Shown: positions 1-19,553 of the stretch, piece by piece
How the letters are laid out: the number at the start of each line of letters is the position of its first letter
How positions within the stretch are numbered: position 1 is the first letter of the stretch
Source: Pedobacter sp.
Lineage (GTDB): Bacteria > Desulfobacterota > Desulfuromonadia > Desulfuromonadales > Syntrophotaleaceae
DNA: 64,000 nucleotides
Direction: 5' to 3'
Assembly: GCA_050253415.1 (NCBI GenBank)
Contig: JBFWJC010000001.1
Coordinates: forward strand, 1,064,679 to 1,128,678
Translations under genes and position numbers: made by a program
The notes under the pieces: generated by a model
Database searches by the model: none
What the model saw: the letters and a program-made list of their open reading frames with translations, nothing else
Told to the model about the DNA's origin: nothing

Positions 1-834
1 CAGTGTTCCCAGGTATACAACGACAAAGAGGGCAACTACCTGACCTCCGGTTTCGAGTATGAAACCATCTGGGGCCTGGGCGCCGACTGCTTGATTGAAG
101 ATCTGGATGATATCGCTACCTGCGACAATATCATGGACGATATCGGCATCGATTCTATCGAGGGTGTTGTCACCATGGGCGTGGTTATGGAAGCCGGTAT
201 CATTCCCTGGGGCGATGGCAAAGGTGCTATCCGCTTGCTGCGCGAGGAAGTCGGCAAGGGTACGGCACTTGGGCACATTATCGGAAACGGCACCGCTTCG
301 GTTGGCCATGCTTATGGCCTGACCCGCGTACCCGTGGTCAAGAATCAGGGTATCCCGGCCTACGACCCCCGTTCGGTTAAAGGTATCGGTATCACCTATG
401 CCACTTCGACCATGGGAGCGGATCACACCGCCGGTTATTGCATTGCCACCAATATCCTCAAATGCGGTGGCTTTGTCGATCCCTTGAGCAAGGAAGGGCA
501 GGTCGAACTGTCCCGCAACCTGCAGATAGGTACCGCAGTCATCGACAGTACCGGTATGTGCGTGTTCGTGGCGTTCCCGATGCTCGATATTCCCGAATGC
601 GCCGATGCCCTTAACGACATGGTAGCAGCCCGCTTCGGCATCGAGCTGGATCATGCCGGCGTTGCCGAGTTGGGCAAGAAGATCCTTAAGCTGGAGCATG
701 AATTCAACCTTGCCGCCGGTATGAGCAATGAAGATGACCGGCTGCCCGAATTCTTCACCCTCGAAACCGTACCGCCGCACAACGCCATCTGGGATTTCAG
801 CCCGGCTGAGATCGACGAATTCTGGAATTTCTGA
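1..834 (+). CDS. aor: Aldehyde:ferredoxin oxidoreductase (AOR family, tungsten), 5'-truncated by window edge
   Basis: Frame 1 is open from base 1 (QCSQVYND...FEYETIWGLG...DDIGIDSI...PAYDPR...GADHTAG...DDRLPEFF). EYET, DxxGxD and YDPR are AOR-family motifs. Confidence 0.9.
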   Translation, partial: QCSQVYNDKEGNYLTSGFEYETIWGLGADCLIEDLDDIATCDNIMDDIGIDSIEGVVTMGVVMEAGIIPWGDGKGAIRLLREEVGKGTALGHIIGNGTASVGHAYGLTRVPVVKNQGIPAYDPRSVKGIGITYATSTMGADHTAGYCIATNILKCGGFVDPLSKEGQVELSRNLQIGTAVIDSTGMCVFVAFPMLDIPECADALNDMVAARFGIELDHAGVAELGKKILKLEHEFNLAAGMSNEDDRLPEFFTLETVPPHNAIWDFSPAEIDEFWNF

Positions 835-4541: not shown

Positions 4542-7500
4542 ATGAATGGTGCAATTCGCTGGATGGCCAATCATCACGTGGCCGCCAACCTCCTGATGCT
4601 GGTGTTCGTGGTGGGCGGCCTGATCCTTGCTCCGAAAGTCAAGCAGGAGGTTTTCCCGGAGGTTTCCCTGGACTGGATTTCCGTCAGCGTTCCCTATCCC
4701 GGGGCCGGCCCCGAGGAAGTGGAAGAGGGCATCTTGCTCAAGATCGAGGAGAACCTCACCGGCGTGGACGGCATCAAGCAGATCAAGGCCACCGCCTCCG
4801 AGGGGGTCGGTACGGTCATGGCCGAGGTGCAGGAAGGTATGGACCCGGACAAGGTGCTGCAGGATGTGCGCAGTGAGGTGGATCGTATCACCACCTTCCC
4901 GCTGGATGCCGAAAAGCCGGTTATCAGCAAGTTGCTCAATCGGCTCGAGGTGATTTCGGTGGTGGTCTACGGCGACCTTTCCGAACGCAGTCTGCGCGAA
5001 CGTGCCGAAGCGATACGGGATGAGCTGCTTACCTATCCGCAGATCACCCAGGTCGATCTGGGCGGTGTGCGTCCCTACGAAATCTCCATAGAGATCCCTG
5101 AGCAGCAGTTGCGTCGCTATAATCTGACCCTGGAGCAGGTGGCCCAACGGGTGGGTAAAGCCTCGCTGGATTTGCCCGGCGGTACTATTCGCACCGAAGG
5201 CGGCGAGATCCTGCTGCGTACCAAGGAACGCCGCTATTTCGGACCTGGATACGCCGAGATCGTGGTGGTCAACCAGCCCGACGGCACCGAGGTGCGCCTG
5301 GGTGATATCGCCCGGGTGCGGGACACCTTCGCCGAAACCGACACCTCGGCCACCTTCGACGGAAAACCGGCCGCCATGATCAAAATCTTTCGGGTCGGCG
5401 ATCAGAAACCCACTGAGATTTCCGATCTGGTCAAGCGCTATGTCGAGGACAAATCGGTAAACCTGCCGCCTAACGTGAAGCTTGCTACATGGAACGATAC
5501 CAGCGAGTTGTTCGAAAGTCGCATGAACCTGCTTCTCAAAAATGCGGCGATCGGTCTGGTGCTGGTGTTCCTGGTCTTGGGGCTGTTTCTGGAAATCCGC
5601 CTCGCCATGTGGGTAATGCTCGGTATCCCCATCGCGTTTTTCGGTACCCTGTTTTTCATGCCCGCCCTGGGCGTTTCCATCAACATGATCTCCCTTTTCG
5701 CCTTTATCCTCGCCCTGGGGATCGTGGTTGATGACGCTATCGTTGTCGGCGAAAACATTTACGAACATCGCCAACGGGGTAGCGCCTACCTGCCGGCGGC
5801 CGTAACCGGCTCCCAGGAGGTGGGGGTGCCGGTGGTTTTTTCGATTCTCACCACGGTAGCTGCTTTTGCCCCGTTGTTGTTCATCAGCGGCACCATGGGC
5901 AAGTTCATCGGCGTCATTCCGGTGGTGGTGATTACCATTTTGCTCATGTCGCTGGTGGAGTCCCTGTTTGTTCTCCCTGCCCATCTCGCCATGGGCCGGC
6001 GACGGGAAGCGGTTGGCGGCGTTCTCGGTCGTATCGACCGGCTGCGACGTCGTTTTGGCGATTTGCTTGACCGTTTCATCTCCGGACCTTATCGGCGTAT
6101 CCTCGAAGTTTGCCTGCGTCATCGCTATGTGACCCTGGCCACCGCCGTTGCCTGCCTGCTTCTGGCCGTCGGCGTGGTCAAGGGTGGCATCATCAAATTC
6201 ACCTTCATGCCGGAGGTCGACGGCGATGTGATTACAGCCTCGCTGCAGATGCCTCCCGGCACCCCGGTGGCGGAAACTGTTAAGGTGGAACGATTCATCG
6301 AGCAGAAAGCCATGGAAACGGTTGCTGAGTTCGATAGCCGTGACCCTGCAGGGCAGACCGTGCTGCGCCATTTCTACGCTGTGGTCGGGGGCACCCTTGC
6401 CGAAAGCGGTCCGGGTGGAGCCGTGGGCGAAAAATCAGGAGCCCACCTTGCCGGCATGGCGCTGTTTTTGACCAAAAGCGAAGAACGTGGCATCCCTGCC
6501 TCCGACATCACAACTGCCTGGCGCAACAAGGTTGGGGAAGTCCCGGGGGTAGAATCCCTGGTGTTCAAATCCAACCTGGTCCGCATGGGGGCCAATATCG
6601 ACATTCAGATGGCCCATGAGAGTTTCGCGGTTCTTTCCGAAGCCGCCGACCGACTCAAGGCCGAGTTGAACAGTTACCCGGGCGTGGGGGATGTCGAGGA
6701 TTCCTACAGCCGCGGCAAAAGGGAACTCAAAATCCGGCTCAAGCCGGAAGCGCGCACTCTGGGGGTTACCGAAGAAGGTCTCGGCCGCCAGATCCGTGGT
6801 GCGTTCTACGGTGCCGAGGCCCTGCGTCTTCAGCGCGGTCGCAACGAGGTCAAAGTGATGGTGCGCTATCCCGAGCAGGATCGTCGCAGTCTGTGGGATC
6901 TGGAGACGATGCGCATCCGTACCCCGCAGGGTGGCGAGATGCCGCTGGATCGGGCTGCCCTGGTGGAGGAGGGGAGAGGCTATGCCGAAATCAAGCGCAC
7001 CGACCGCAAGCGAGTGATCAACGTCAGCGCCAGCGTCGACAGCAAGACCGCCAATGCCCAGGAAATTCTGGCCGAAGTGCGTTCGGGCCTGCTGACCGAG
7101 ATGCAGCATGATTATCCAGGACTTACCTTTGATATGGAGGGAGAGGAAAAGGAGCGGCGTGATTCCATGGCGAGCATGGTCAGCGGTTTCCAACTCGCAC
7201 TGTTTGCCATCTTTGCCCTGCTGGCCATCCCCTTCCGCAGTTACAGCCAGCCGTTGATCATCATGGCTGCCATCCCTTTTGGCATCGTCGGCGCCGTTAT
7301 CGGCCACCTGCTCATGGGCTACGATCTCTCCATTCTCAGCATCTTCGGTATCGTGGCACTGGCCGGGGTGGTGGTCAACGATTCGCTGCTCCTCATCGAC
7401 CGGATCAACCAGAACCGCCGGGAGGGAGGCGAAGATCTGCTGGGGTCCCTCCTGGATGCCGGGCAGCGGCGTTTCCGGCCGATCCTGCTGACCTCTTTGA

Positions 7501-9798: not shown

Positions 9799-12756
9799 AT
9801 GGCTCAATGTGAATATCGCGTAGGTGACCGACAGCACGGATTCGTAGTGACTTCAGTGTCGCCTTTACCGGAGCTGCACGCAACCTTGGTGCAGTTGCAT
9901 CATGAGCGCACCGGCGCCCGTCTGGTACACCTCGACCGGGACGATGACAATAACCTGTTCGGGGTCGGATTTCGTACTACCCCGCAGGATTCCACTGGTG
10001 TGGCACATATCCTTGAACATACCGTGTTATGCGGGTCCAAGCGTTATCCCGTGCGCGACCCTTTCTTTACCATGCTCAAGCGCAGTCTCAGCAGCTTCAT
10101 GAATGCGCTGACGGCGAGCGATTGGACCTGCTACCCTTTTTCATCTCAGAACCAGGCCGATTTTTACAACCTGATGGGGATTTACCTCGATGCGGCATTT
10201 TTCCCGCTTTTGCGGGAACGGGATTTCCGTCAGGAGGGGCATCGCCTTGAATTCACCGATCCGGCTGACGGCGATTCGCCCCTGCAGTTCAAGGGGGTGG
10301 TTTATAACGAGATGAAGGGTGCCATGGCCGATCCTTCTTCGTTGCTGCATCGACGCCTGACCCGGGCCCTTTACCCGACCGTAACCTACGGATTCAATTC
10401 CGGCGGCGAACCGGCCGATATCCTTGATTTGACCTACGAACAACTCAAGGAGTTTCACTCTACCTATTATCACCCGGCCAACGCGTGGTTCTTCACCTAC
10501 GGCAACCTGCCGCTGGAAGGTCATCTTAAAGTCATCGAGGAGCAGGCGCTTAGCCAGTTCGGTCCGCTACAGGTCAACAGTGCCATCCCTGACGAGGTCC
10601 GTTTTCCAGAGCCTCGCAAGGTCGTGGAGACTTTCCCGGTAGATGCAGGAGAGTCGCTCGCCCGTCGTTCCATGGTCCAGTTGGCGTGGTTGACTTGTCC
10701 GGTCTCCGATCAGTTCGAACGGCTCGGCATGATGCTGTTGTCCGAATTGCTGCTTGGTAATCCGGCCGCGCCGCTGTACAAGGCCCTGCTCGATTCTGGT
10801 CTGGGGCAGAATCTTGCGCCTGGCACAGGATATCACGACGATTATCGCGAAACCTACTTTGCCGTTGGTTTGCAAGGTGCCGATCCCGAAGCCGTCGACG
10901 GTATAGAAGCTCTGGTTCTGAATACCCTGCAGGAAACCGTTCGGAATGGGTTTTCCTCTCAGCAGATTGAAGCGGCTATTCATCAACTGGAGTTCTCCTA
11001 CCGCGAGGTTAATGGGGATCAATATCCTTACGGTCTGTTATTGCTGATGCGCATGTTCGGTTCCTGGCTGCATGCTGACGATCCGGTATCGCCACTGTGT
11101 CTGGAAAAAGATCTGGTGCGTTTGCGGCAGGAACTCGCCAACGGTCCGTTTTTTGAGGATCTCATCCGTCGCCAATTGCTTGATAACGCCCATCGCGTTA
11201 CCTTGCTGCTGAAGCCCGATGCTCAGCAGAAAGAACGTGAAGAGCAATTACAGCGTTCACGTCTGGAAACCATAGAGAAGAATCTGACCGCCAGAGACCG
11301 GGAGGAACTGGTCAAACTGGGAGTAGCGCTGCAGCATGCTCAGGAGGCCCCCGAGGATCTGTCGTGTCTGCCGACTCTGGAGCTGGAAGATATCCCGTCC
11401 AGTCAGCCGCTGGTATCGTGCGAAACCTATGAACGCCAGGGAGTGCAGGTCCGCTGGTTTGAACAACCTACCAACGGGATCGGTTACTTTGCCGCCAACC
11501 TGGATATTGGTGATTTGCCGAGTGAACGGCTTAAGGATTTGCCATTGTTCTGCTCGCTTTTGACCAAAATCGGAGCGGCAGGGCACAACTATCTGGAGAT
11601 GGCAGAGCGTGTTACCGGTGCTACCGGTGGCGTGCAGGCCAGTGCTGCTATTTTTGACAGCCCTAAAAGCCTGGATGAGTTTCAGCTCGCCGTCGAACTG
11701 CGCGGCAAAGCATTGCAGCGAAATCAGCAGAAAATGTTCGAGATTCTCAGGGATTTCTGCACCGCGCCCGATTTTTCCGACTTGAAGCGTTTACATACTG
11801 TTCTGCAACAGATGAAGACCTCCCTGGAAAATTCCGTTCCCGGGTCCGGTCACAGTTATGCTTCGCGGGTTGCGGGAGGTTCCCTGACCTCCGCCGGACG
11901 TCTGCGCGAAGAATGGAGCGGTCTGCACCTGATCCGGATCGTAAAAGAACTGGCAGCCAGGCAACCGGAACAACTTGCCGAGTTCGCACAAAGCCTGCAG
12001 CATCTGGCCTCGCTGGTGTTTCGCCGTGATCGTTTGCGTTGTGCGATTACCGCCGAAGAAGCCGTTTTTAAAGAGATGGGTCCGGCCCTTGATGCATTTC
12101 TGGCGGATCTTTCCGCAGGGGATGGGATTGCGGCTGCCGCTGCAAGGCCCACCCCGTTTGAGGTAAAGGCTTCAGGTTGGTATACCGCGGTGCCGGTGTC
12201 GTACGTGGCCCGGGTCTTTCGAGCGGTTCCGCTTGAGCATCCCGATGGTGCTGCTTTAATGGTTTTGGCCAAGCTTCTGCGTGGCGGGTATCTGCATCGC
12301 GAAATTCGTGAAAAGGGTGGCGCTTACGGTGGCATGGCTAACTATGATGCCCAGGGTGGATTGTTTGCCATGCTTTCCTACCGTGATCCCCATTTGCTGC
12401 GTACTCTGGATGTATATAAGGATGCTGTCCAATGGGCGGCTGAAGGTCAGTTCGCCGCTGTTGATATTAAAGAGGCTATTCTCGGCGTGTTCAGCCAGCT
12501 TGATCGTCCCCTCTCTCCGGGGGGCAAAGGCATTCGGGAATTTCACTATCTCTTGCAGGGTTTGACGCCGGAAGCGCGGCAGGCTTTCCGGCAGCGCATC
12601 CTGGCGGTGGATGCCGCCACGATCTCCAGGGTTGCCCGGTGTTACCTGGTGGATGGTTGGGACGCCAGCGCCGTGTCGGTGGTCGCGGGGGAAGATATGT
12701 TGCAGGCCGCCAATCGTAAACTCGGTGATGCGTCACTGGTCCTGGAACGTATCTGA
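9799..12756 (+). CDS. M16C family zinc metallopeptidase (presequence protease-like)
   Basis: Inverted zincin motif HILEH, GVVYNEMKG, LHREIREKGGAYG, SYRDP. AGGAG RBS. Confidence 0.92.
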   Translation: MAQCEYRVGDRQHGFVVTSVSPLPELHATLVQLHHERTGARLVHLDRDDDNNLFGVGFRTTPQDSTGVAHILEHTVLCGSKRYPVRDPFFTMLKRSLSSFMNALTASDWTCYPFSSQNQADFYNLMGIYLDAAFFPLLRERDFRQEGHRLEFTDPADGDSPLQFKGVVYNEMKGAMADPSSLLHRRLTRALYPTVTYGFNSGGEPADILDLTYEQLKEFHSTYYHPANAWFFTYGNLPLEGHLKVIEEQALSQFGPLQVNSAIPDEVRFPEPRKVVETFPVDAGESLARRSMVQLAWLTCPVSDQFERLGMMLLSELLLGNPAAPLYKALLDSGLGQNLAPGTGYHDDYRETYFAVGLQGADPEAVDGIEALVLNTLQETVRNGFSSQQIEAAIHQLEFSYREVNGDQYPYGLLLLMRMFGSWLHADDPVSPLCLEKDLVRLRQELANGPFFEDLIRRQLLDNAHRVTLLLKPDAQQKEREEQLQRSRLETIEKNLTARDREELVKLGVALQHAQEAPEDLSCLPTLELEDIPSSQPLVSCETYERQGVQVRWFEQPTNGIGYFAANLDIGDLPSERLKDLPLFCSLLTKIGAAGHNYLEMAERVTGATGGVQASAAIFDSPKSLDEFQLAVELRGKALQRNQQKMFEILRDFCTAPDFSDLKRLHTVLQQMKTSLENSVPGSGHSYASRVAGGSLTSAGRLREEWSGLHLIRIVKELAARQPEQLAEFAQSLQHLASLVFRRDRLRCAITAEEAVFKEMGPALDAFLADLSAGDGIAAAAARPTPFEVKASGWYTAVPVSYVARVFRAVPLEHPDGAALMVLAKLLRGGYLHREIREKGGAYGGMANYDAQGGLFAMLSYRDPHLLRTLDVYKDAVQWAAEGQFAAVDIKEAILGVFSQLDRPLSPGGKGIREFHYLLQGLTPEARQAFRQRILAVDAATISRVARCYLVDGWDASAVSVVAGEDMLQAANRKLGDASLVLERI

Positions 12757-12869
12757 CCGGTAGGCCCGGTAAGCAGGCTTTTGTCTTGGGCCAAAGTGTG
12801 CTACCGTTGGTTCGGTTTTGATCCTCTTTCGGCGGGATGGTAATAAAAAATGCTAGGGAGCTCCATTTG

Positions 12870-13784
12870 ATGGAAAAATTGCTGTCCACCAAAGAAGTTG
12901 CGCAGCGTCTCAGTGTCAACGAAAAGATGGTTTACACGTTGATTACCGAAAAGGGATTGCCCGCGACCAAAATTACCGGCAAGTGGTTGTTTCCGGCCCA
13001 TCTGGTGGAGCAATGGGTCGAGAGCATGACCATCAATTATCCGACCGGGACGGCCGAGTTGCCGCACAAGAGCGGGTTGTTGATGATTGCCGGAAGCGAC
13101 GACATCCTCCTGGACCGATCGCTGTCGTTGTTCATGCAACTCAATGTCGGCTCTGTCGTATTGTTTGGTGCAATAGGGAGCCTCGGTGGGCTCAAGGCTC
13201 TGCGGGGTGGCATGTGTCATATTGCAACCAGCCACCTGGCGGAAGACAACGAAAAAGATTACAATTTCTCCTTCGCTGCCAGCGAACTTGAGGCGCTGCC
13301 GGCGGTGGTCAATTTTTGCCGTCGCGAACAAGGTCTGATTGTCGCCAAGGGGAATCCCCATGGTATCCGCAGTTGCCGAGATATCGCTGAAAAAGATCTG
13401 ACCGTGGTCAATCGGCCTCTCGGCGCCAGCACCCGCATTATTTTCGATCAACAGTTGCAGGAAGCCGGCATCAAGTCGGCCCGTATCAAAGGCTATGGTA
13501 ACGAAGTGTCTCATCACCTTGATATCGGTCTTGAAATTCTGAGCGGGCGGGCGGATATCGGTCCGGGCATCCGGCCTGCGGCCGCCCTGCTGGGGTTGGA
13601 TTTCCTGCCTTTGCGTTGGGAGCGTTTTGACCTTCTGATCCCCAAAGACTGTTTTTTTGACAAGTCCATTCAACAATTTCTGGGCATGTTGCATGAGCCT
13701 GCTTTTCAAGATCTGGCCGCCAGTCTGCCAGGATATGAATTAAATCTTTCCGGACGCATGTTGTTTCCCGGCGAGTCCCGTTGA
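12870..13784 (+). CDS. Excisionase-type HTH + periplasmic-binding-protein-like domain regulator (TaoR-like; molybdate/tungstate sensing)
   Basis: N-terminal LLSTKEVAQRLSVNEKMVYTLI...GKWLF (HTH_17-like). C-terminal GSLGGLKALRGG...REQGLIV..GNP...VNRPLGASTR resembles the PBP-like domain. Confidence 0.82.
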   Translation: MEKLLSTKEVAQRLSVNEKMVYTLITEKGLPATKITGKWLFPAHLVEQWVESMTINYPTGTAELPHKSGLLMIAGSDDILLDRSLSLFMQLNVGSVVLFGAIGSLGGLKALRGGMCHIATSHLAEDNEKDYNFSFAASELEALPAVVNFCRREQGLIVAKGNPHGIRSCRDIAEKDLTVVNRPLGASTRIIFDQQLQEAGIKSARIKGYGNEVSHHLDIGLEILSGRADIGPGIRPAAALLGLDFLPLRWERFDLLIPKDCFFDKSIQQFLGMLHEPAFQDLAASLPGYELNLSGRMLFPGESR

Positions 13785-13892
13785 TTGCCGTCCTCATGTT
13801 TTCCCCTCCCGCCTCGCAATCTTTACAAATATCGTATACTCTCAGGTAGTTAAGCCTGAAGCGATTTTAAGTAATTTGCTCAAAAAAGGCCG

Positions 13893-13922
13893 TTGACTCC
13901 GAAGCGTTGTCACTGATATGTT
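13893..13922 (+). promoter_or_regulatory. sigma70-type promoter for tupA
   Basis: TTGACT-N18-TATGTT with extended TG. Confidence 0.55.
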
Positions 13923-14029
13923 ATAGCGCAAAGTGGGATTCCCCTCATGGAAATTCTTTTTTTCATGGCGGGTTGATTATTGTTATTAACAGGGGAAAAA
14001 CATCATCACCCAAATCGAGGAGGATCAAC

Positions 14030-14836
14030 ATGAAATCAGTTTTTCGTATTCTTGGTGGCAGTCTGCTGCTGCTGGCGGTTTTTTGCACTGGTGCTATGGC
14101 TGCCGAGCATCTGAAGCTTTCTACTACCACTTCGACCGATAACTCGGGCTTGCTCAAAGCTATTTTGCCCGCATTTGAACAAAAATACGACTGCAAGGTC
14201 GATGTCATTGCCGTCGGTACCGGTAAGGCTCTCAAGATTGCCGAAAACGGCGATGTGGATGTTACCTTGGTTCATGCTCGCAGCAAAGAGGACAAGTTTG
14301 TTGATGCCGGGTTTGGCGTTAACCGCCGCGATGTCATGTATAACGACTTTGTTATTATCGGTCCCGCCAAGGATCCTGCCGGCGTTAAAACCGCCAAATC
14401 AGCCGCCGAAGCCATGAAGAAGATTGCTGCTGCCAAAGCCTTCTTTGTGTCCCGTGGTGACGATTCCGGTACCCACACTAAGGAAAAAGGTCTGTGGAAA
14501 GCCGCCGAAGTTGCTCCCAAGGGCGACTGGTACATCGAAGCCGGTCGTGGCATGGGAGAGGTTATCACCATGGCCAACGAGCGCCAGGGTTATGCCCTGA
14601 CCGACCGTGCTACCTATCTCGCTTACAAAAGCAAAATCGAACTACCGATTGTTTGTGAGGGCGACAAGGCCATGTTTAACCCCTACGGTGTGATTGCCGT
14701 TAATCCTAAATTGCATCCCCATGTCAAGTACGATCTGGCTATGGCTTTCATCGCTTACCTGACTTCCAACGAAGGCCAGAAGGCCATCAGCGATTTCAAA
14801 GTAAACGGTAATCAGCTGTTTTTTGTTTATGAATAA
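14030..14836 (+). CDS. tupA: Tungstate-binding periplasmic protein
   Basis: Signal peptide ending AMA, TTTS motif (STTTSTDNSGLL), VGTGKAL, MYNDFVIIGP, SRGDDSGTH, NPYGVI. GAGGAGG RBS. Confidence 0.88.
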   Translation: MKSVFRILGGSLLLLAVFCTGAMAAEHLKLSTTTSTDNSGLLKAILPAFEQKYDCKVDVIAVGTGKALKIAENGDVDVTLVHARSKEDKFVDAGFGVNRRDVMYNDFVIIGPAKDPAGVKTAKSAAEAMKKIAAAKAFFVSRGDDSGTHTKEKGLWKAAEVAPKGDWYIEAGRGMGEVITMANERQGYALTDRATYLAYKSKIELPIVCEGDKAMFNPYGVIAVNPKLHPHVKYDLAMAFIAYLTSNEGQKAISDFKVNGNQLFFVYE

Positions 14837-14856
14837 GCAGTGCTGGTTGTAATATT

Positions 14857-14893
14857 AACGCCCTGTCAGTTATTCTGACAGGGCGTTTTTTTT
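14857..14893 (+). terminator. Rho-independent terminator or attenuating hairpin after tupA
   Basis: AACGCCCTGTCAG-ttatt-CTGACAGGGCGTT followed by a T run. Confidence 0.85.
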
Positions 14894-14938
14894 CATGGGT
14901 GATTATTCAATGTATTCCCAATCGTCGGTGAGGGGCAC

Positions 14939-16054
14939 GTGAAAATCGGTAGTTTTGAATTCAATATGCGTGAATTGGGTGGGGCCATGGGGGATTTTGG
15001 CACCCTGTTTCCGCTGGCTATCGGCTATATCGTGGTGTGCGGGATGAATCCCGCCGGTTTGTTGGTGATGATGGGACTTGCCAATGTGGCTACCGGCCTG
15101 TTTTACCGCTTGCCGATGCCCATTGAACCGATGAAGGTCTTGGCGGTAGTGGCGATTGCTGAAAAATGGCCGCCTTCCATGGTTTATGCTTCGGCATTTT
15201 CCATGGGAGTAGTCTGGATGATCATGTCGGTCACCGGTCTAATGAGTCTGCTCGCCCGTATTACGCCTGAATCGGTGATTCGTGGCATTCAGGTGTCCCT
15301 CGGCGTCATGCTGGCTGTTCAAGCGTTACAGATGATTTCCTCCGGATGGGCTCTTGGTGTTGTGTCGATTGCAGTGGTTCTTTTATTGCGGCAGAATCGC
15401 TTTGCGCCGGCGGCGGTGGTGCTGGTGCTTATGGGGGTGGTGGTCATTTATCTCCATGGACAGTTTACGGGATTGCCTGCCCCCGCGTTCGCCTGGCCGG
15501 GAATTTACTCCTTCGATATGCAGGAGGCCTGGCAGTCGATGCTGCGCGGTGGTTTTTCCCAACTTCCGCTGACTGCAACCAATGCCGTGATCGCCACGGC
15601 GGTATTGATTCGCGGATATTGGCCCGATCGTCCTGTCTCTGAGAAAAAACTGGCTCTGAATATGGGCATTATTAATTTAGTCGTGCCGTTTTTTGGCGGA
15701 ATGCCCATGTGCCACGGCGCTGGCGGGTTGGCGGGGCAGTACTATTTCGGTGCACGTACGGGCGGTGCCAATGTGATAGAAGGAGTGATTGAAATCGGCC
15801 TGGGTTTATTTTTAGCCGGTTCGATTGCCGGTTTGTTTGCCGCATTCCCCCTGGCTATCGTGGGAGCTATGATGTTGCTGGTCGGCATCGAATTGACAAA
15901 ATGCGTAAGGGAGGTGTCCTGGGATTGGCAATTGTTTCCTACCGCACTCACTGTGATTGTTTGTCTTTGGACAAACATGGCGTATGGATTTCTTGTCGGC
16001 ATGGTGATGCATCATGGATGGAATATCCTGCGTGCTAAAGCCCCGATGTCATAA
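14939..16054 (+). CDS. MOT1-family putative molybdate/tungstate (sulfate) transporter
   Basis: Highly hydrophobic. GAMGDFGT, PMPIEPMK, LPLTATNAVIA and GMPMCHGAGGLAGQYYFGARTG are MOT1-family motifs. Confidence 0.85.
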   Translation: MKIGSFEFNMRELGGAMGDFGTLFPLAIGYIVVCGMNPAGLLVMMGLANVATGLFYRLPMPIEPMKVLAVVAIAEKWPPSMVYASAFSMGVVWMIMSVTGLMSLLARITPESVIRGIQVSLGVMLAVQALQMISSGWALGVVSIAVVLLLRQNRFAPAAVVLVLMGVVVIYLHGQFTGLPAPAFAWPGIYSFDMQEAWQSMLRGGFSQLPLTATNAVIATAVLIRGYWPDRPVSEKKLALNMGIINLVVPFFGGMPMCHGAGGLAGQYYFGARTGGANVIEGVIEIGLGLFLAGSIAGLFAAFPLAIVGAMMLLVGIELTKCVREVSWDWQLFPTALTVIVCLWTNMAYGFLVGMVMHHGWNILRAKAPMS

Positions 16055-16080
16055 CTGGCGCGTGACCAGAGAATGATGCT

Positions 16081-16112
16081 TATCTTGCCATCATGGATGG
16101 CCAAGATATAAT
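16081..16112 (+). promoter_or_regulatory. Promoter overlapped by an inverted repeat
   Basis: TTGCCA-N16-TATAAT, with dyad TATCTTG-CCATC-atg-GATGG-c-CAAGATA. Confidence 0.6.
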
Positions 16113-16160
16113 ACTATAGTGAGGCTCGGTCATAGGCACTCAACGGAAAGGAGAAAGGAC

Positions 16161-16358
16161 ATGCGCGTTCAAGACGGTGATGTATTTGTTGCTAAAGCGG
16201 GTGAGTATGACGTAGAGTTGACCGTGACCAAGGTCTGCAAAGGGGACGTTTGCTGGACGGAATGCGACGCGGATCTGGCCTGTAACGGTCTACCAATGGT
16301 GCCCGTTTCAGCCGGAGCGCGGTTGTCCGAACGCCGCCCTGATCGAAAGGGGCTGTGA
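16161..16358 (+). CDS. Small Cys-rich hypothetical protein (65 aa)
   Basis: Strong RBS (AAGGAGAAAGGAC), own promoter and terminator, sequence ...VCKGDVCWTECDADLACNGLPM... Confidence 0.7.
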   Translation: MRVQDGDVFVAKAGEYDVELTVTKVCKGDVCWTECDADLACNGLPMVPVSAGARLSERRPDRKGL

Positions 16359-16441
16359 TCGATAATCGGTATGCAACGGTTTGATGATGATTGAACGCAG
16401 TTACCTTGTTTGAACAGTGGGTCCCCCTGTCCAGCTATGTT

Positions 16442-16469
16442 GCCGCACCTTCGGGTTGCGGTTTTTTTT
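16442..16469 (+). terminator. Rho-independent terminator
   Basis: GCCGCACC-TTCG-GGTTGCGGT followed by a T run (cUUCGg loop). Confidence 0.8.
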
Positions 16470-16727
16470 GTCTTCGGGGCATACGACGTCATACGCGCAT
16501 CGTGACTACAGGAAGGCATTGTAAAACAATTTGATAATACATCGCTTTGCGTGACAACGAGTGAAAATTGGTTTATAAAGTGGTGCGGACTTTGCAGAAT
16601 AAAAATTAATCGCCCTATTTTAATCGGGCCTTGTCTTTTCTTTAGCCGTAACGTATTTGTGGTGAAATTGAAGTTTGCTTTATTGGCTTTATTTAAATTG
16701 TAAATCACAGGTTCCGGGAGTGGTCGC

Positions 16728-19553
16728 ATGATCTGCCGCAAGGCTCTGTTTTTTGTCTGTGTATTATTTCTGCTTTTGCCAGGTCTCAGTCGGGCGGAGG
16801 ATCTCAAGGTTTTGATTCTTCATTCCTACCACGCCGGGTTTGTCTGGACTGAGGATCAGCAGGAGGGGTTTTTTGAAGCTCTTGGTGCCAGTACCGTTGC
16901 AGAGAAGATATCCTATCGTGTCGAATACCTGGAAGCCAATACCCGGGAATGCGATTCTGCCTATCTTCAACACTTTAATGCCTACCTTCAACAAAAATAT
17001 ACACATTATACGCCCGATCTGATTTACGCTACGGACAACAATGCGATTGAATTTCTTCAGCAATATGCCCGTCATCTGTTTCCTCATACCCCTGTTATAT
17101 ACAGCGGCCTGAATGACATGGGATTGGACAGCCGTCTGAACCATGAGGCGTTTTACGGTATTTTCGATTCAATGGATATAGCAGGTACTGTGGCTCTTGC
17201 CATACGCTTGGTACCGCAATTGCGAACCTTGTATTTTGTCGGTGATGACTCTGCGACCGCGCGCGGCATCAGGGGATTAATCGAAAAGGAAACTCAGAAA
17301 TTCTTCCCGCAAGTGGACATCGCTTTTATTCAGAGTCCTTACGTGGAGGAACTTGAATCGCAGCTAAGCAGTTACCAGCCTAAATTGTGGGTTGTTAATT
17401 CTTTAGCTGAGATTCGCAATGCGCGTGGTGACCGGTTGACAATCGCTGAAACTCTCGAGCGTCTGGAGCATGCTGGAGAGTTCATTATTTTGGCCATGAA
17501 AGACAATTATTTGACGTCCGGCGTACTTGGGGGGGCGGTCAATCGTGGGCGTGAGCAAGGTCTGCAAGCGGGGTACCTGGCTCGGGAGCAGCTGCTTAAC
17601 GAAACAGTCAGCGCCAACGACAACCTGTTGGAGCGGGCGTCAAACCCCTACCTGTTCCAATCTGAGGCGATGGACCGCTTTGGACTGAAGCCGACAGACC
17701 TTCCTCCTGGAAGCCGGTTCTTGCCTCCACCTCAGTCGTTGTGGCTGCGGCACAGTTCTTTGATCATGGCTTTTGTCGGATTCGCATGTTTGCAATTGGT
17801 CGGGATGTGGCTGTTCCGGCGCACAATTACCGGTCTGCGCTCGGGACAAAAAAAGTTACTTCTAAAAGAAGCGCAATTCAAAACAGTCATTGACGCAACC
17901 CATGATGCTGTCATTGCCATTAATCAACGAGGCATTGTTACTCTCTTTAATCCGGCTGCGGAGGCATTGTTTGGCTGGGATTGCGACGAAATGCTCGGTG
18001 GCACTCTGGATGTGCTGATGCCCGAGGGCTATCGCATGCAGCATCGGCAGGATGTCGCCAGCTTTTTCGGTACCGGTGAGCCGTCTGAAGCGATCGGCCG
18101 ATCTCTCGAATTGTTGGCTGTTCACCGCTCAGGCAGGGAGTTTCCAGTCGAATTGGGATTGTCCGTGGGGCATTGCGGTCAGCAACGTTTTGTTCTCGCT
18201 ATTTTGCGTGATATCTCCAGTCAGCGTCAGGTTGAACGGGAAATCAAACAGTTGGCTTATTATGACAGCTTGACCGGTCTGCCCAATAGGGCTCTATTGG
18301 AAGATCGCTGCCGTCGTGTTTTGAGTACTGCCGAGCGTTCCGGGCGCATGGCGGCATTGTTATTTATTGGCGTGGACAACCTTAAATCCATTAATGATAC
18401 GCGCGGACATGCCTGTGGAGACCGGGTGCTCAAACTCATCGGGCAGCGGTTGGTCGCCCTGGTGAAGGATGGGATGACTGTCGTCAGGTGGGATGGTGAT
18501 AAATTTATCGTTCTGCTCCCGGGACTGCACAGTGCCAGTGAGGTTGACAACGTTGCCAAAGATATTCTTCAGGCTTTTTCCGAGCCCTGCGAAGTGGATG
18601 ACCAGCACTTTTTTGTAACAGCGAGTATTGGCGGGGCTGTCTATCCTCAGCATGGCTTGGATGGCGATAAACTGCTTAAACATGCCGATATGGCCATGTA
18701 TGCCGCCAAGGAGCAGGGGCGAAACACTTATTGTACGTTTACTGAGGAGATGAATCGCAAGGTTCAGGAACGCAGTGAGCTCGAACATAGCTTGAGGCAG
18801 GCGCTTGCGCGTGAAGAGTTTTTCTTGGCTTTTCAGCCCCAGGTTGACCAGACTACGGGTAAAGTTCTGGGCTCCGAGGCTTTGCTGCGTTGGCGTCACG
18901 CTGATAAGGGGATGATTTCGCCAGGACAATTCATTCCGGTGGCAGAGGACAGTGGTTTGATACTCCCTATCGGGCATTGGGTGCTGCATACAGCATGCGC
19001 GCAGAATAAGGCCTGGCAGCAGGCCGGCTATCCGCCGATGCGTGTTGCCGTCAATTTGTCTGCCCGTCAGTTCCAGCAACCTGACTTTTACGACCAGGTG
19101 GCCCAGGTGTTGCGTGATACGGAGCTGGATCCACGGTATCTTGAGCTGGAACTGACAGAAAGTTTGCTTATGGCGGATGCGGATGCGGCGGTAGAAACCC
19201 TCCGTGCACTGCGTGACCTGGGTGTGGGAATCGCCATCGACGATTTTGGTACCGGTTATTCTTCCTTGAGCTATCTGAAGACCTTTCCCATCGACCGTAT
19301 CAAGATTGCACAGGAATTTGTGTTGGATATCGGACGAGATCCCGAGGATGCCGCCATCGTCGAGACCATTATCGCCATGGCGCATGGTCTGGGTCTCGAT
19401 ATCGTGGCTGAAGGGGTTGAAACGGCCGCCCAACTTGAATTTTTACGTGCCCGAAAGTGTCAGGTTATGCAGGGCTATTATTTTGGACACCCGATGCCGG
19501 CCGAAAACTTTATTGAGTATCTTTCCGAGAACTTTGTCGCTATCAACTCGTAG
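16728..19553 (+). CDS. Membrane-bound sensor-PAS-GGDEF(degenerate)-EAL protein, probable c-di-GMP phosphodiesterase
   Basis: N-terminal ABC-SBP-like periplasmic domain (VLILHSYH), TM helix, PAS (FNPAAEALFG), YDSLTGLPNR, EALLRW, DDFGTGYSS, VAEGVET. Confidence 0.9.
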   Translation: MICRKALFFVCVLFLLLPGLSRAEDLKVLILHSYHAGFVWTEDQQEGFFEALGASTVAEKISYRVEYLEANTRECDSAYLQHFNAYLQQKYTHYTPDLIYATDNNAIEFLQQYARHLFPHTPVIYSGLNDMGLDSRLNHEAFYGIFDSMDIAGTVALAIRLVPQLRTLYFVGDDSATARGIRGLIEKETQKFFPQVDIAFIQSPYVEELESQLSSYQPKLWVVNSLAEIRNARGDRLTIAETLERLEHAGEFIILAMKDNYLTSGVLGGAVNRGREQGLQAGYLAREQLLNETVSANDNLLERASNPYLFQSEAMDRFGLKPTDLPPGSRFLPPPQSLWLRHSSLIMAFVGFACLQLVGMWLFRRTITGLRSGQKKLLLKEAQFKTVIDATHDAVIAINQRGIVTLFNPAAEALFGWDCDEMLGGTLDVLMPEGYRMQHRQDVASFFGTGEPSEAIGRSLELLAVHRSGREFPVELGLSVGHCGQQRFVLAILRDISSQRQVEREIKQLAYYDSLTGLPNRALLEDRCRRVLSTAERSGRMAALLFIGVDNLKSINDTRGHACGDRVLKLIGQRLVALVKDGMTVVRWDGDKFIVLLPGLHSASEVDNVAKDILQAFSEPCEVDDQHFFVTASIGGAVYPQHGLDGDKLLKHADMAMYAAKEQGRNTYCTFTEEMNRKVQERSELEHSLRQALAREEFFLAFQPQVDQTTGKVLGSEALLRWRHADKGMISPGQFIPVAEDSGLILPIGHWVLHTACAQNKAWQQAGYPPMRVAVNLSARQFQQPDFYDQVAQVLRDTELDPRYLELELTESLLMADADAAVETLRALRDLGVGIAIDDFGTGYSSLSYLKTFPIDRIKIAQEFVLDIGRDPEDAAIVETIIAMAHGLGLDIVAEGVETAAQLEFLRARKCQVMQGYYFGHPMPAENFIEYLSENFVAINS

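Follow-up and report, generated by a model that had tools for sequence, protein, structure and literature searches.

Accounts of how prokaryotes take up tungstate and molybdate centre almost wholly on three ABC systems, namely Mod, Wtp and Tup. The locus considered here raises the question of whether a periplasmic tungstate-binding protein, TupA, can be partnered by a secondary carrier of the MOT1 family instead of the ABC components TupB and TupC. It was analysed in a window of 64,000 nucleotides (the whole stretch of DNA under consideration) from Pedobacter sp., a bacterium placed by GTDB in the Syntrophotaleaceae within the order Desulfuromonadales, together with the remainder of its genome, further genomes from the order and MOT1 loci from across bacteria.

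Organization of the locus

A sequence-only reading of this DNA had picked out four elements, that is a co-oriented HTH_17-PBP regulator, a TTTS-motif TupA, a strong hairpin and a MOT1-family membrane protein, all of which are present at, or a few bases off, the places where it had put them (Table 1).

Table 1. Features of the tupA-MOT1 locus, in window coordinates
Feature	Position	Strand	Characteristics
One-component regulator, TaoR-type architecture	12870..13784	+	Pfam HTH_17 DNA-binding and PBP_like (PF12727) oxyanion-type sensor domains
Promoter-like site for tupA	13893..13922	+	TTGACT-18-TATGTT, overlapping a GTGATAAC-like 8-mer (candidate operator); consensus scan
tupA, periplasmic tungstate-binding protein	14030..14836	+	268 aa, signal-peptide-like N-terminus, TTTS motif
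Intrinsic-terminator-type hairpin and T-run	14857..14894	+	Stem 13 bp (8 G-C), loop 5 nt, stem-loop 14857-14887
MOT1-family secondary oxyanion carrier (putative)	14939..16054	+	371 aa, GTG start, PF16983 twice

Its statement that the window is devoid of ABC permease and ATPase is equally borne out. Non-overlapping frames of at least 110 aa were chosen greedily, giving 51; Pfam scans of 38 of these (as sets of 16 and 22), as well as of the regulator, tupA and MOT1, revealed no ABC gene, and TupB, TupC and ModB queries gave no match to the whole window by tblastn. The tungsten-type AOR announced about 12 kb upstream is a real gene of 656 aa, which extends past the 5' end of the window, its last 247 residues corresponding to positions 91-834. 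This AOR is adjoined by a PAS-LuxR regulator gene of its own.

Within 12600-16800, 10 terminator-like sites were found, against a mean of 5.6 in shuffled sequence, and the hairpin between tupA and MOT1 is the strongest among them. Hairpin and T-run recur at the equivalent place in 16 of 16 family loci with tupA-MOT1, the stem sequences varying between genera with base changes that preserve pairing. A consensus scan found no promoter-like site in the approximately 45 bases separating the terminator from MOT1. Regarding RNA elements, neither a Moco nor any other riboswitch was detected with Rfam in the window at gathering thresholds; at E<=1, the sub-threshold matches in 12600-16800 fell on the terminator only, and a riboswitch search of six tupBC loci at E<=0.01 found none.

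The open frame of the regulator covers 12837..13784, and the alignment of relatives begins at Met 12870; its product matches HTH_17 with 43 bits and PBP_like with 216.8 bits. It is the sole HTH_17+PBP_like gene found in the genome, where PF12727 has three matches, the second of which carries HTH_3 instead. The orthologs, 64-97% identical, are located 5' of tupA in 12 relatives (the copy of G137 being truncated) and upstream of MOT1 in G110, a genome of a sister genus. The name TunR reportedly goes back to Kazakov (2013), and a literature search did not find it together with tungstate. According to excerpts of PMC11980592, TaoR-type regulators are made of HTH_17 and PBP-like domains, TaoR itself being the tungsten-responsive aldehyde oxidoreductase regulator of Desulfovibrio alaskensis (Rajeev et al., 2019, as cited in excerpts of PMC11980592 and PMC12327845). 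The likeness of the present regulator to TaoR is one of identical two-domain architecture, and extends to its linkage with W transport genes and to a tungsten-type AOR in the neighbourhood; here, however, the AOR is 12 kb off with its separate PAS-LuxR regulator, and the target site and effector of the tupA-linked regulator are putative.

The tungstate-binding protein and its upstream region

The frame of tupA opens at 13907, and the ATG at 14030 is backed as the start by a ribosome-binding site, a signal-peptide-like N-terminus and the relatives. From its sequence, TupA is an orthodox tungstate-binding protein. It matches the Geobacter sulfurreducens structure PDB 3LR1, entitled 'Tungstate ABC transporter, periplasmic tungstate-binding protein', with 335.6 bits (E 2e-99) and the D. 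alaskensis G20 structure 5MY5 with 243 bits. In D. alaskensis TupA, the oxyanion pocket is described in the parts of PMC5517513 drawn on here as comprising the TTTS motif in lobe A together with His59, Arg118, Thr124 and Asp170. The present TupA retains the TTTS and the His/Arg/Thr/Asp of this site: STTTST occupies residues 31-36, and across 23 aligned sequences of relatives the TTTS, H82, R142, T148 and D192 show no or almost no variation. A hypervariability of TupA relative to its neighbours was considered and rejected, the identity among relatives being 63-91% in the frame from 14030 and the DNA identity unremarkable.

Upstream of tupA, the promoter-like block listed in Table 1 is conserved in the genus alignment, and 14 of 15 upstream regions contain a GTGATAAC-like 8-mer (at most one mismatch) at a distance of 103-124 bases from the tupA start. 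The same 8-mer occurs upstream of tupB in 3 of 11 genes only, at scattered positions. A comparison of 7- and 8-mers revealed no operator common to the tupA and tupBC promoters, the thresholds being 6 or more of the 15 tupA upstream regions and 4 or more of the 11 upstream of tupB.

A distant tupBC pair and gene order among relatives

The proposal that MOT1 acts here instead of TupBC is not supported by a whole-genome search, as an intact orphan tupB-tupC pair, conserved in the family, was found about 177 kb downstream on the same contig, a finding which the sequence-only reading had itself named as refuting its proposal. The tupB gene (G000:C1:1256160-1256834) scores 209.6 bits with NF041773 and 228 bits with NF038017 (cut-off 100), and is followed by the gene for a 216-aa ABC ATPase; no binding-protein gene adjoins the pair. 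It is the only TupB-type match above 200 bits in the genome, which holds exactly one TupB-type permease with ABC ATPase. Across 14 family loci, the pair forms open frames 60-96% identical, and in 11 of these loci tupBC is divergent beside the same ADP-ribosylglycohydrolase gene. For molybdate, the genome has three modABC loci plus one additional modA. In common with the known TupABC transporter, this genome encodes an ABC ATPase and a permease of the TupB type besides TupA; the differences are that the three genes do not form a single operon and that the ATPase is short, with no TOBE domain listed in scans of the ATPases of this family (NCBIfam for the window genome, Pfam for the G110 ortholog).

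The adjacency of tupA and MOT1 proved to be conserved: the order sample contains 20 genomes with this MOT1, and 16 of them have the two genes side by side. The layout of G110 is of another kind: the TupA ortholog is contained in a tupA-tupA2-(ARH)-tupB-tupC cluster, and only 83 bases, without a tupA, separate the regulator gene from MOT1. The identity of its TupA (67%) is in line with that of MOT1 (71%), the regulator (70%) and TupB (70%). G090 has two tupA copies, one beside MOT1 and the other beside tupA2. By a hand tally, tupB lies directly beside tupA in 58 of the 71 genomes of the order outside the family with a TupA match. Splitting of tupA from tupBC also occurs without MOT1, since tupA and tupB are separated on one contig by 406 kb in G019, 541 kb in G038 and 49 kb in G026. 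The last of these resembles the present locus in having an orthologous regulator (65%) and a TupA (67%) with tupBC elsewhere, and differs in its third gene, which encodes an outer-membrane OprO/P porin and stands between the regulator and tupA, whereas here an inner-membrane MOT1 follows tupA.

A second lineage, distant from this one and represented by L114/L125 and L120, has a comparable arrangement, where tupA is just 5' of MOT1, with TupA 48-49% and MOT1 61% identical to those described here, and where tupBC is orphan elsewhere (L145 and L146, with 1.5 kb of upstream flank searched). This repetition of tupA-MOT1 together with an orphan tupBC hints at more than co-regulation.

The MOT1 protein and its bacterial relatives

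MOT1 matches Pfam PF16983 over two repeats with a total of 178.5 bits (cut-off 30), a scan of the genome giving 107.3 and 92.2 bits, and a STAS domain was not found with Pfam. Two signature motifs are given for MOT1 in the parts of PMC10385300 drawn on here: FGxMPxCHG(S/A)GGLAxQ(Y/H)xFG(A/G)RxG is matched exactly at residue 252, and the other reads PMPIEPMKVLAVVA, agreeing at 11 of 14 positions (V>I, Q>E, A>V). The membrane domain is predicted to be of the SulP/SLC26 type, the AlphaFold model (pLDDT 76.8) having SLC26Dg 5IOF (TMq 0.67), UraA, SLC26A3 and AtSULTR4;1 as best Foldseek matches. MOT1 resembles Chlamydomonas MOT1 and Arabidopsis MOT1.1/SULTR5;2 in its Pfam family, in the motif that is matched exactly, in its lack of STAS and in its predicted fold. 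It differs from these eukaryotic proteins in being bacterial and shorter, as well as in being genomically tied to Tup genes and a TaoR-type regulator. Its substrate may be tungstate; for the algal MOT1, PMC10385300 mentions tungstate solely as a blocker.

Across bacteria, 80 MOT1 loci were surveyed with flanks of up to 4 kb, shorter on small contigs. No tup or mod binding-protein gene was present in the flanks searched of 61 loci, and tup genes were present in those of the other 19. In four loci (L072, L097, L111 and L126), MOT1 accompanies a complete ABC system, since it follows tupABC there in the order tupA..tupB-tupC-MOT1. Other Mo-related neighbours are a Mop/TOBE gene (L114), ModE-N-like genes in three loci, MoaE in one and a MoaF-like gene in one. 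A Mo/W role for MOT1 is supported by this gene context and by the family motifs as far as they match. The bacterial subfamily, 60-72% identical across several phyla, has more than 4,000 database matches at E<=1e-10. Two comparative-genomics papers confine MOT1 to eukaryotes: the transporter table of PMC6147048 (2018) shows a dash under both bacteria and archaea, and PMC13144720 (2026) writes of the 'restriction to eukaryotes' of MOT1/MOT2. The present survey, as read from sequence, points the other way, since bacterial MOT1 is repeatedly linked in several lineages with tup, mop, ModE-like and TaoR-like genes.

Functional interpretation

The locus probably represents a split TupABC importer whose tupA has moved under a TaoR-type regulator, beside an independent SLC26-fold secondary carrier of Mo/W. 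TupA would catch periplasmic tungstate and pass it to the distant TupBC pair, and the HTH_17+PBP_like regulator would sense tungstate or molybdate and control the tupA promoter. MOT1, as a STAS-less carrier of the SLC26 fold, would by itself carry molybdate, tungstate or both through the inner membrane; it seems to need no neighbouring binding protein, because 61 of the 80 loci have no tup gene in their flanks. Its expression would be at a lower level, depending on transcripts that run through the conserved terminator, or else would start at an undetected promoter. As for the history of the locus, the regulator and MOT1 may be the older pair, between which a tupA copy from a tupA-tupA2-tupBC cluster would have been inserted. 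Against this split-importer reading, tupA2, a second TupA-like paralog, could be the partner of TupBC instead. It is also weakened by the repeat of tupA-MOT1 with orphan tupBC in the distant lineage, by the failure to find a motif shared by the regions upstream of tupA and tupBC, a common regulon of the two being putative, and by the short interval between terminator and MOT1, in which the scan detected no promoter-like site. Close to the split-importer reading is the second suggestion of the sequence-only reading, a W/Mo discrimination module with TupA capturing W and MOT1 handling Mo, if TupA works through its own pump and MOT1 is a separate Mo/W carrier, the division between W and Mo being putative.

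The first suggestion of that reading, binding-protein-assisted and ATP-independent uptake, fits the data poorly. It is very unlikely that TupA docks on MOT1 and hands over tungstate, be it alone or besides TupBC, even if tupA is immediately 5' of MOT1 in most of the order genomes with this MOT1, adjacency with orphan tupBC recurs in the distant lineage, MOT1 is appended to four tupABC operons and a terminator after the binding-protein gene would suit a design with abundant binding protein and little carrier. An intact and conserved TupBC exists, the TupA ortholog of G110 is with tupBC and the regulator and MOT1 are together there without tupA, and most surveyed MOT1 loci, at 60-72% identity to the present MOT1, are without a nearby binding-protein gene. 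Besides, three MOT1 proteins with no adjoining tupA (L076, L081 and L082) nest in the MOT1 clade of the family with a support of 99, in a quick tree whose backbone is largely unresolved, and two of them are beside transposase-type genes. Eukaryotic MOT1 functions without a binding protein according to the excerpts of PMC10385300. The resemblance to TRAP and TTT systems is limited to gene order, a binding-protein gene preceding a secondary-carrier gene; the predicted fold is of the SLC26/UraA type, the carrier mostly occurs without a binding-protein gene and the binding protein here has an ABC partner in the genome. We know of no SLC26/UraA-fold member that uses a binding protein, which also counts against such assistance. 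Were it nevertheless real, it would constitute a third class of binding-protein-dependent secondary transporter, besides TRAP and TTT. Just as improbable is a dual use of TupA, which would feed the distant TupBC and also hand tungstate to the adjacent MOT1; MOT1 would then be the first SLC26-fold secondary transporter aided by a periplasmic binding protein, and the arrangement shared by two distant lineages would reflect selection for this partnership.

Somewhat less improbable, though still unlikely, is mere synteny, with MOT1 as a separate transcription unit that is unrelated to tupA or the regulator and serves a substrate other than W/Mo, for instance sulfate or some different anion. The strong terminator between the genes, the varied and unrelated neighbours of the 61 MOT1 loci and the non-committal NCBI label of this protein ('putative sulfate/molybdate transporter') agree with it, and the adjacency within the family may be a single inherited event. 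Across phyla and gene orders, MOT1 is nevertheless found time and again with tup, Mop, ModE-N-like, MoaE and MoaF-like genes, the regulator and MOT1 still adjoin in G110 where tupA is absent between them, the signature motifs are kept, one exactly and the other at 11 of 14 positions, and Chlamydomonas MOT1 is reportedly not inhibited by sulfate (excerpts of PMC10385300). A role of MOT1 in homeostasis or discrimination, by which, upon Tup induction, molybdate or surplus tungstate would be exported or re-equilibrated and the right W:Mo be kept for the AOR, is rather improbable as well. It accords with the three modABC loci and extra modA already serving molybdate uptake, with the ties of MOT1 to W-type genes (Tup, TaoR-type) and not to mod genes, and with the tungsten-type AOR upstream; against it, characterised MOT1 proteins are described in the same excerpts as moving molybdate into the cytosol, and the sequence offers no direction-determining feature.

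Implications for transport and annotation

A candidate ATP-independent Mo/W carrier of bacteria is now directly testable, and it bears on the 278 Mo-using bacteria recorded with 'no known transporter' in PMC6147048. As regards annotation, an 'orphan' TupA beside a non-ABC carrier does not amount to a pump-free system until the rest of the genome has been searched. All three Tup proteins here stay under the NCBIfam equivalog cut-offs (246/400 bits for TupA, 209.6/320 for TupB and 116.6/400 for the ATPase). For tung_bind_TupA (NF041772), with which the present TupA scores 246.3 bits, the 400-bit cut-off looks too strict for the clade, because not a single one of the order's 151 genomes has a match that reaches it.

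Gene Content of the Window

The four elements named by the sequence-only reading, namely the regulator, TupA, the hairpin and MOT1, are all present in the window, as is the tungsten-type aldehyde oxidoreductase (AOR) it had placed upstream, a 656-aa gene whose 3' end covers window 91-834. For the regulator, the alignments with relatives begin at the Met at 12870. The tupA frame opens at 13907, and an ATG at 14030 is the preferred start as it fits the ribosome-binding site, a hydrophobic N-terminus and the relatives. The resulting protein of 268 aa scores 246 bits against the NCBIfam model tung_bind_TupA (cut-off 400); with the PDB entries 3LR1, the deposition title of which reads periplasmic tungstate-binding protein, and 5MY5, the scores are 335.6 and 243 bits. 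The TTTS motif is kept together with the His, Arg, Thr and Asp residues of the oxyanion pocket, as named in PMC5517513, and these positions are invariant or nearly so across 23 relatives.

Regarding MOT1, one of the published signature motifs is matched exactly; the other agrees at 11 of 14 positions, the differences being conservative. PMC10385300 gives these motifs as well as, for eukaryotic MOT1, a Km of 7 nM and a block by tungstate. The AlphaFold model (pLDDT 76.8, pTM 0.80) is closest to the membrane domain of SLC26Dg (TMq 0.67), UraA, SLC26A3 and AtSULTR4;1, which points to a SulP/SLC26-type fold despite the Pfam name, here without a STAS domain. Searching by sequence retrieved no solved structure for the family, the top PDB match having an E-value of 0.0045, and NCBI labels these proteins as 'putative sulfate/molybdate transporter'. 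In the literature, MOT1 is tabulated for eukaryotes only in PMC6147048, which also counts 278 Mo-using bacteria with no known transporter, and PMC13144720 speaks of a 'restriction to eukaryotes' for MOT1/MOT2. Papers naming the Pfam family MFS_MOT1 in their full text dealt with plants or fungi only, and a bacterial MOT1 linked to tup genes is described in none of the papers examined, though journals outside the search may hold such a description.

A PAS-PAS-LuxR (GerE) regulator gene directly precedes the AOR gene, which would thus have its own candidate regulator, distinct from the TaoR-type one 12 kb downstream. Elsewhere in the genome, a second PBP_like (PF12727) regulator carries an HTH_3 (Cro/C1-type) DNA-binding domain and is surrounded by two TonB-dependent receptor genes and a Peripla_BP_2 binding-protein gene.

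Features discussed in the text, in window positions or as genome:contig:range (G000, genome of the window)
Feature	Position	Strand	Remarks
AOR and upstream regulator gene	G000:C1:1061755-1065512 (L150)		reaches window 1-834
Regulator ORF	12837..13784	+	HTH_17, 43 bits; PBP_like PF12727, 216.8 bits
MOT1	14939..16054	+	GTG start; Pfam MFS_MOT1 matched in both halves, 178.5 bits (cut-off 30)
Small conserved ORF	16085-16358		just downstream of MOT1; 65 aa from ATG 16161
HTH_3+PBP_like regulator	G000:C1:20484-21539 (L151:4485-5540)
tupA2, second TupA-like gene	G000:C1:179029-179706 (L007:6967-7821)	-	39% identical to TupA
ADP-ribosylglycohydrolase gene paired with orphan tupBC	G000:C1:1255498-1257700 (L025:5498-8015)		divergent; also in 10 relatives
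Truncated regulator of G137	G137:C19:1-2109 (L047)
tupA of G004	G004:C1:814000-828000 (L034), tupA at 6148-7026
Regulator-porin-tupA locus of G026	C1:366000-379500 (L153)

An Orphan tupBC Pair in the Same Genome

Contig C1, to which the window belongs, is one of 18 in a 4.1-Mb assembly rated 100% complete. The earlier statement that the window holds no ABC gene stands, as none occurs among the 38 ORFs scanned with Pfam, out of 51 of at least 110 aa that were picked, and tblastn of TupB, TupC and ModB over the whole window gave no match. Besides three modABC loci and an additional modA, a ModB profile search of the whole genome gave one weaker permease match, at C1:1256178. Against tung_perm_TupB this permease reaches 209.6 bits, and against ABC_perm1 228 bits (cut-off 100). 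It is the only TupB-type match above 200 bits in the genome, and the gene of a 216-aa ABC ATPase comes directly after it. No binding-protein gene adjoins this tupBC pair, the upstream neighbour being an ADP-ribosylglycohydrolase gene on the opposite strand. Located about 177 kb downstream of tupA, it is an orphan tupBC of the kind that the sequence-only reading had named as refuting its proposal of a TupA paired with MOT1 instead of TupBC, and that proposal is not supported.

In tupA2, TGSP replaces TTTS, and the SRGDxSGTH and TD motifs are kept. The gene stands alone between PAS histidine kinase and methyl-accepting chemotaxis genes; paralogs of this type adjoin tupA/tupBC in the genomes G110 and G090 and at the loci L072 and L097.

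Conservation Within the Order

The order was sampled evenly with 151 genomes, the window's own included. MOT1 of the window type occurs in 20 of them, i.e. the window's genome, all 16 other genomes of its family and 3 from two other families; named database relatives are labelled Syntrophotalea, Pelobacter or Syntrophotaleaceae. In 16 of these 20 genomes, tupA lies immediately upstream of MOT1, the exceptions being G110, G014, G054 and G067. Of the 15 relatives with this adjacency, 12 have the regulator gene ahead of tupA (one truncated copy, in G137, included) and two, the genomes of genus g3, lack it; the remaining locus is cut by a contig end. Out of 304 residues, the G137 copy retains only 1-122, as two short stretches that match in different frames; it looks like a decayed gene, in an assembly 86% complete with 8% contamination. 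TupA of G004 matches the profile in two separate pieces within a single 307-aa frame, and about 25 extra columns are needed to align it with the TupA of the window (63% identity), suggesting an insertion inside the protein.

The orphan pair is conserved as well: at E<=1e-40, 14 of the 16 other genomes in the family carry tupB-tupC, both with open reading frames. The remaining two assemblies have completeness values of 84% and 86%, and in one a fragment is seen at a contig end. The divergent ADP-ribosylglycohydrolase neighbour is kept in 11 of 14 family tupBC loci (13 relatives and the window's own). In G110, an informative genome here, the regulator and MOT1 stand 83 bases apart with no intervening tupA, and the full cluster reads tupA-tupA2-(glycohydrolase)-tupB-tupC, with the glycohydrolase gene on the opposite strand between tupA2 and tupB. 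Its TupA ortholog is 67% identical to that of the window, and its regulator, MOT1 and TupB 70-71%. Both arrangements are found in G090, where one copy of tupA neighbours MOT1 and another tupA2. The most parsimonious account starts from a regulator-MOT1 pair coexisting with a complete tup cluster; a tupA copy would then have moved in between the regulator and MOT1, with loss of the original copy.

Split tup Systems and MOT1 in Other Lineages

The splitting of tupA from tupBC is not special to genomes with MOT1. A TupA match is present in 71 genomes outside the family, and by hand tally tupB lies directly beside tupA in 58 of them; the two genes are far apart on one contig in G019 (406 kb), G038 (541 kb) and G026 (49 kb), three genomes in which MOT1 was not found, and on different contigs or ambiguously placed in the others. 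In G026, an orthologous regulator (65%) is followed by an OprO/P-type porin gene and then by tupA (67%). With a porin standing in for MOT1, the regulator and an orphan tupA appear as a front end that recurs with different third genes.

A protein search with MOT1 gave 4,352 matches at E<=1e-10 among 8,000 candidates scored. One genome per species was scanned and 80 MOT1 loci were kept, 58-89% identical and from many phyla, 19 of which have tup genes in the examined flanks. Eleven of these are of the family type. In four, MOT1 comes after tupB-tupC, namely L072 (deltaproteobacterial) and L097, L111 and L126 (Bacillota; L126 cut at tupC). Three others (L114, L125 and L120) show tupA, a terminator, an oppositely oriented 69-aa Mop/TOBE gene and then MOT1, and the last has a tupA fragment 3.5 kb from MOT1. 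The module of L114 and L125 occurs twice on one 33-kb contig of a distant deltaproteobacterial genome, the MOT1 match of L125 being broken into two pieces. Varied neighbours surround the other 61 loci, including ModE-N-like small regulators directly upstream in three, MoaE in one, a MoaF-like gene in one and Fe-S/NrfD oxidoreductase subunits on the flanks of one. Most MOT1 homologues lack a binding-protein gene nearby, and some come after a complete tupABC operon. A quick tree places the tup-linked MOT1s at no fewer than four positions; as the backbone is poorly resolved, the independence of these linkages rests mainly on the differing gene orders and host phyla. The family clade (support 99) also contains three MOT1s without tupA, and transposase-type genes adjoin two of these.

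Altogether, TupA would serve the distant TupBC, and MOT1 would be an independent carrier of molybdate and/or tungstate. One observation speaks against a purely ordinary split importer, as the combination of tupA-MOT1 with orphan tupBC recurs in a distant lineage: tupBC is again orphan elsewhere in the genomes of L114 and L120, where the 1.5 kb upstream of it gave no TupA match. On account of this recurrence, a small probability is kept for a TupA of dual use, delivering to both partners.

Regulation of the Locus

The regulator of the locus would control tupA and, via read-through, MOT1. A 13-bp hairpin (8 G-C pairs, 5-nt loop) with a T-run lies 20 bases past the tupA stop and is kept between tupA and MOT1 in all 16 family loci; its stem differs between genera, and single changes preserve pairing. 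Since the approximately 45 bases between the hairpin and the MOT1 start revealed no promoter-like site, MOT1 is probably expressed by read-through. Rfam searches of the window and of six tupBC loci gave no riboswitch.

Upstream of tupA, a GTGATAAC-like 8-mer (at most one mismatch) is found 103-124 bases before the start in 14 of 15 regions from three genera, at 13890-13935 in the window and at the equivalent place in relatives, on opposite strands in different genera and duplicated in L040. Before tupB, it occurs in only 3 of 11 upstream regions and at scattered positions, and the two sets have no k-mer in common. Hence tupA has a conserved candidate operator, possibly that of the HTH_17-PBP regulator, and tupBC no sign of the same.

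The small ORF downstream of MOT1 matches no Pfam family. It is preceded by the highest-scoring promoter-like site of the region (TTGCCA-16-TATAAT, 11/12), and of the 19 MOT1 loci compared in relatives, 10 have the ORF in this position (69-93% identity), G110 among them.
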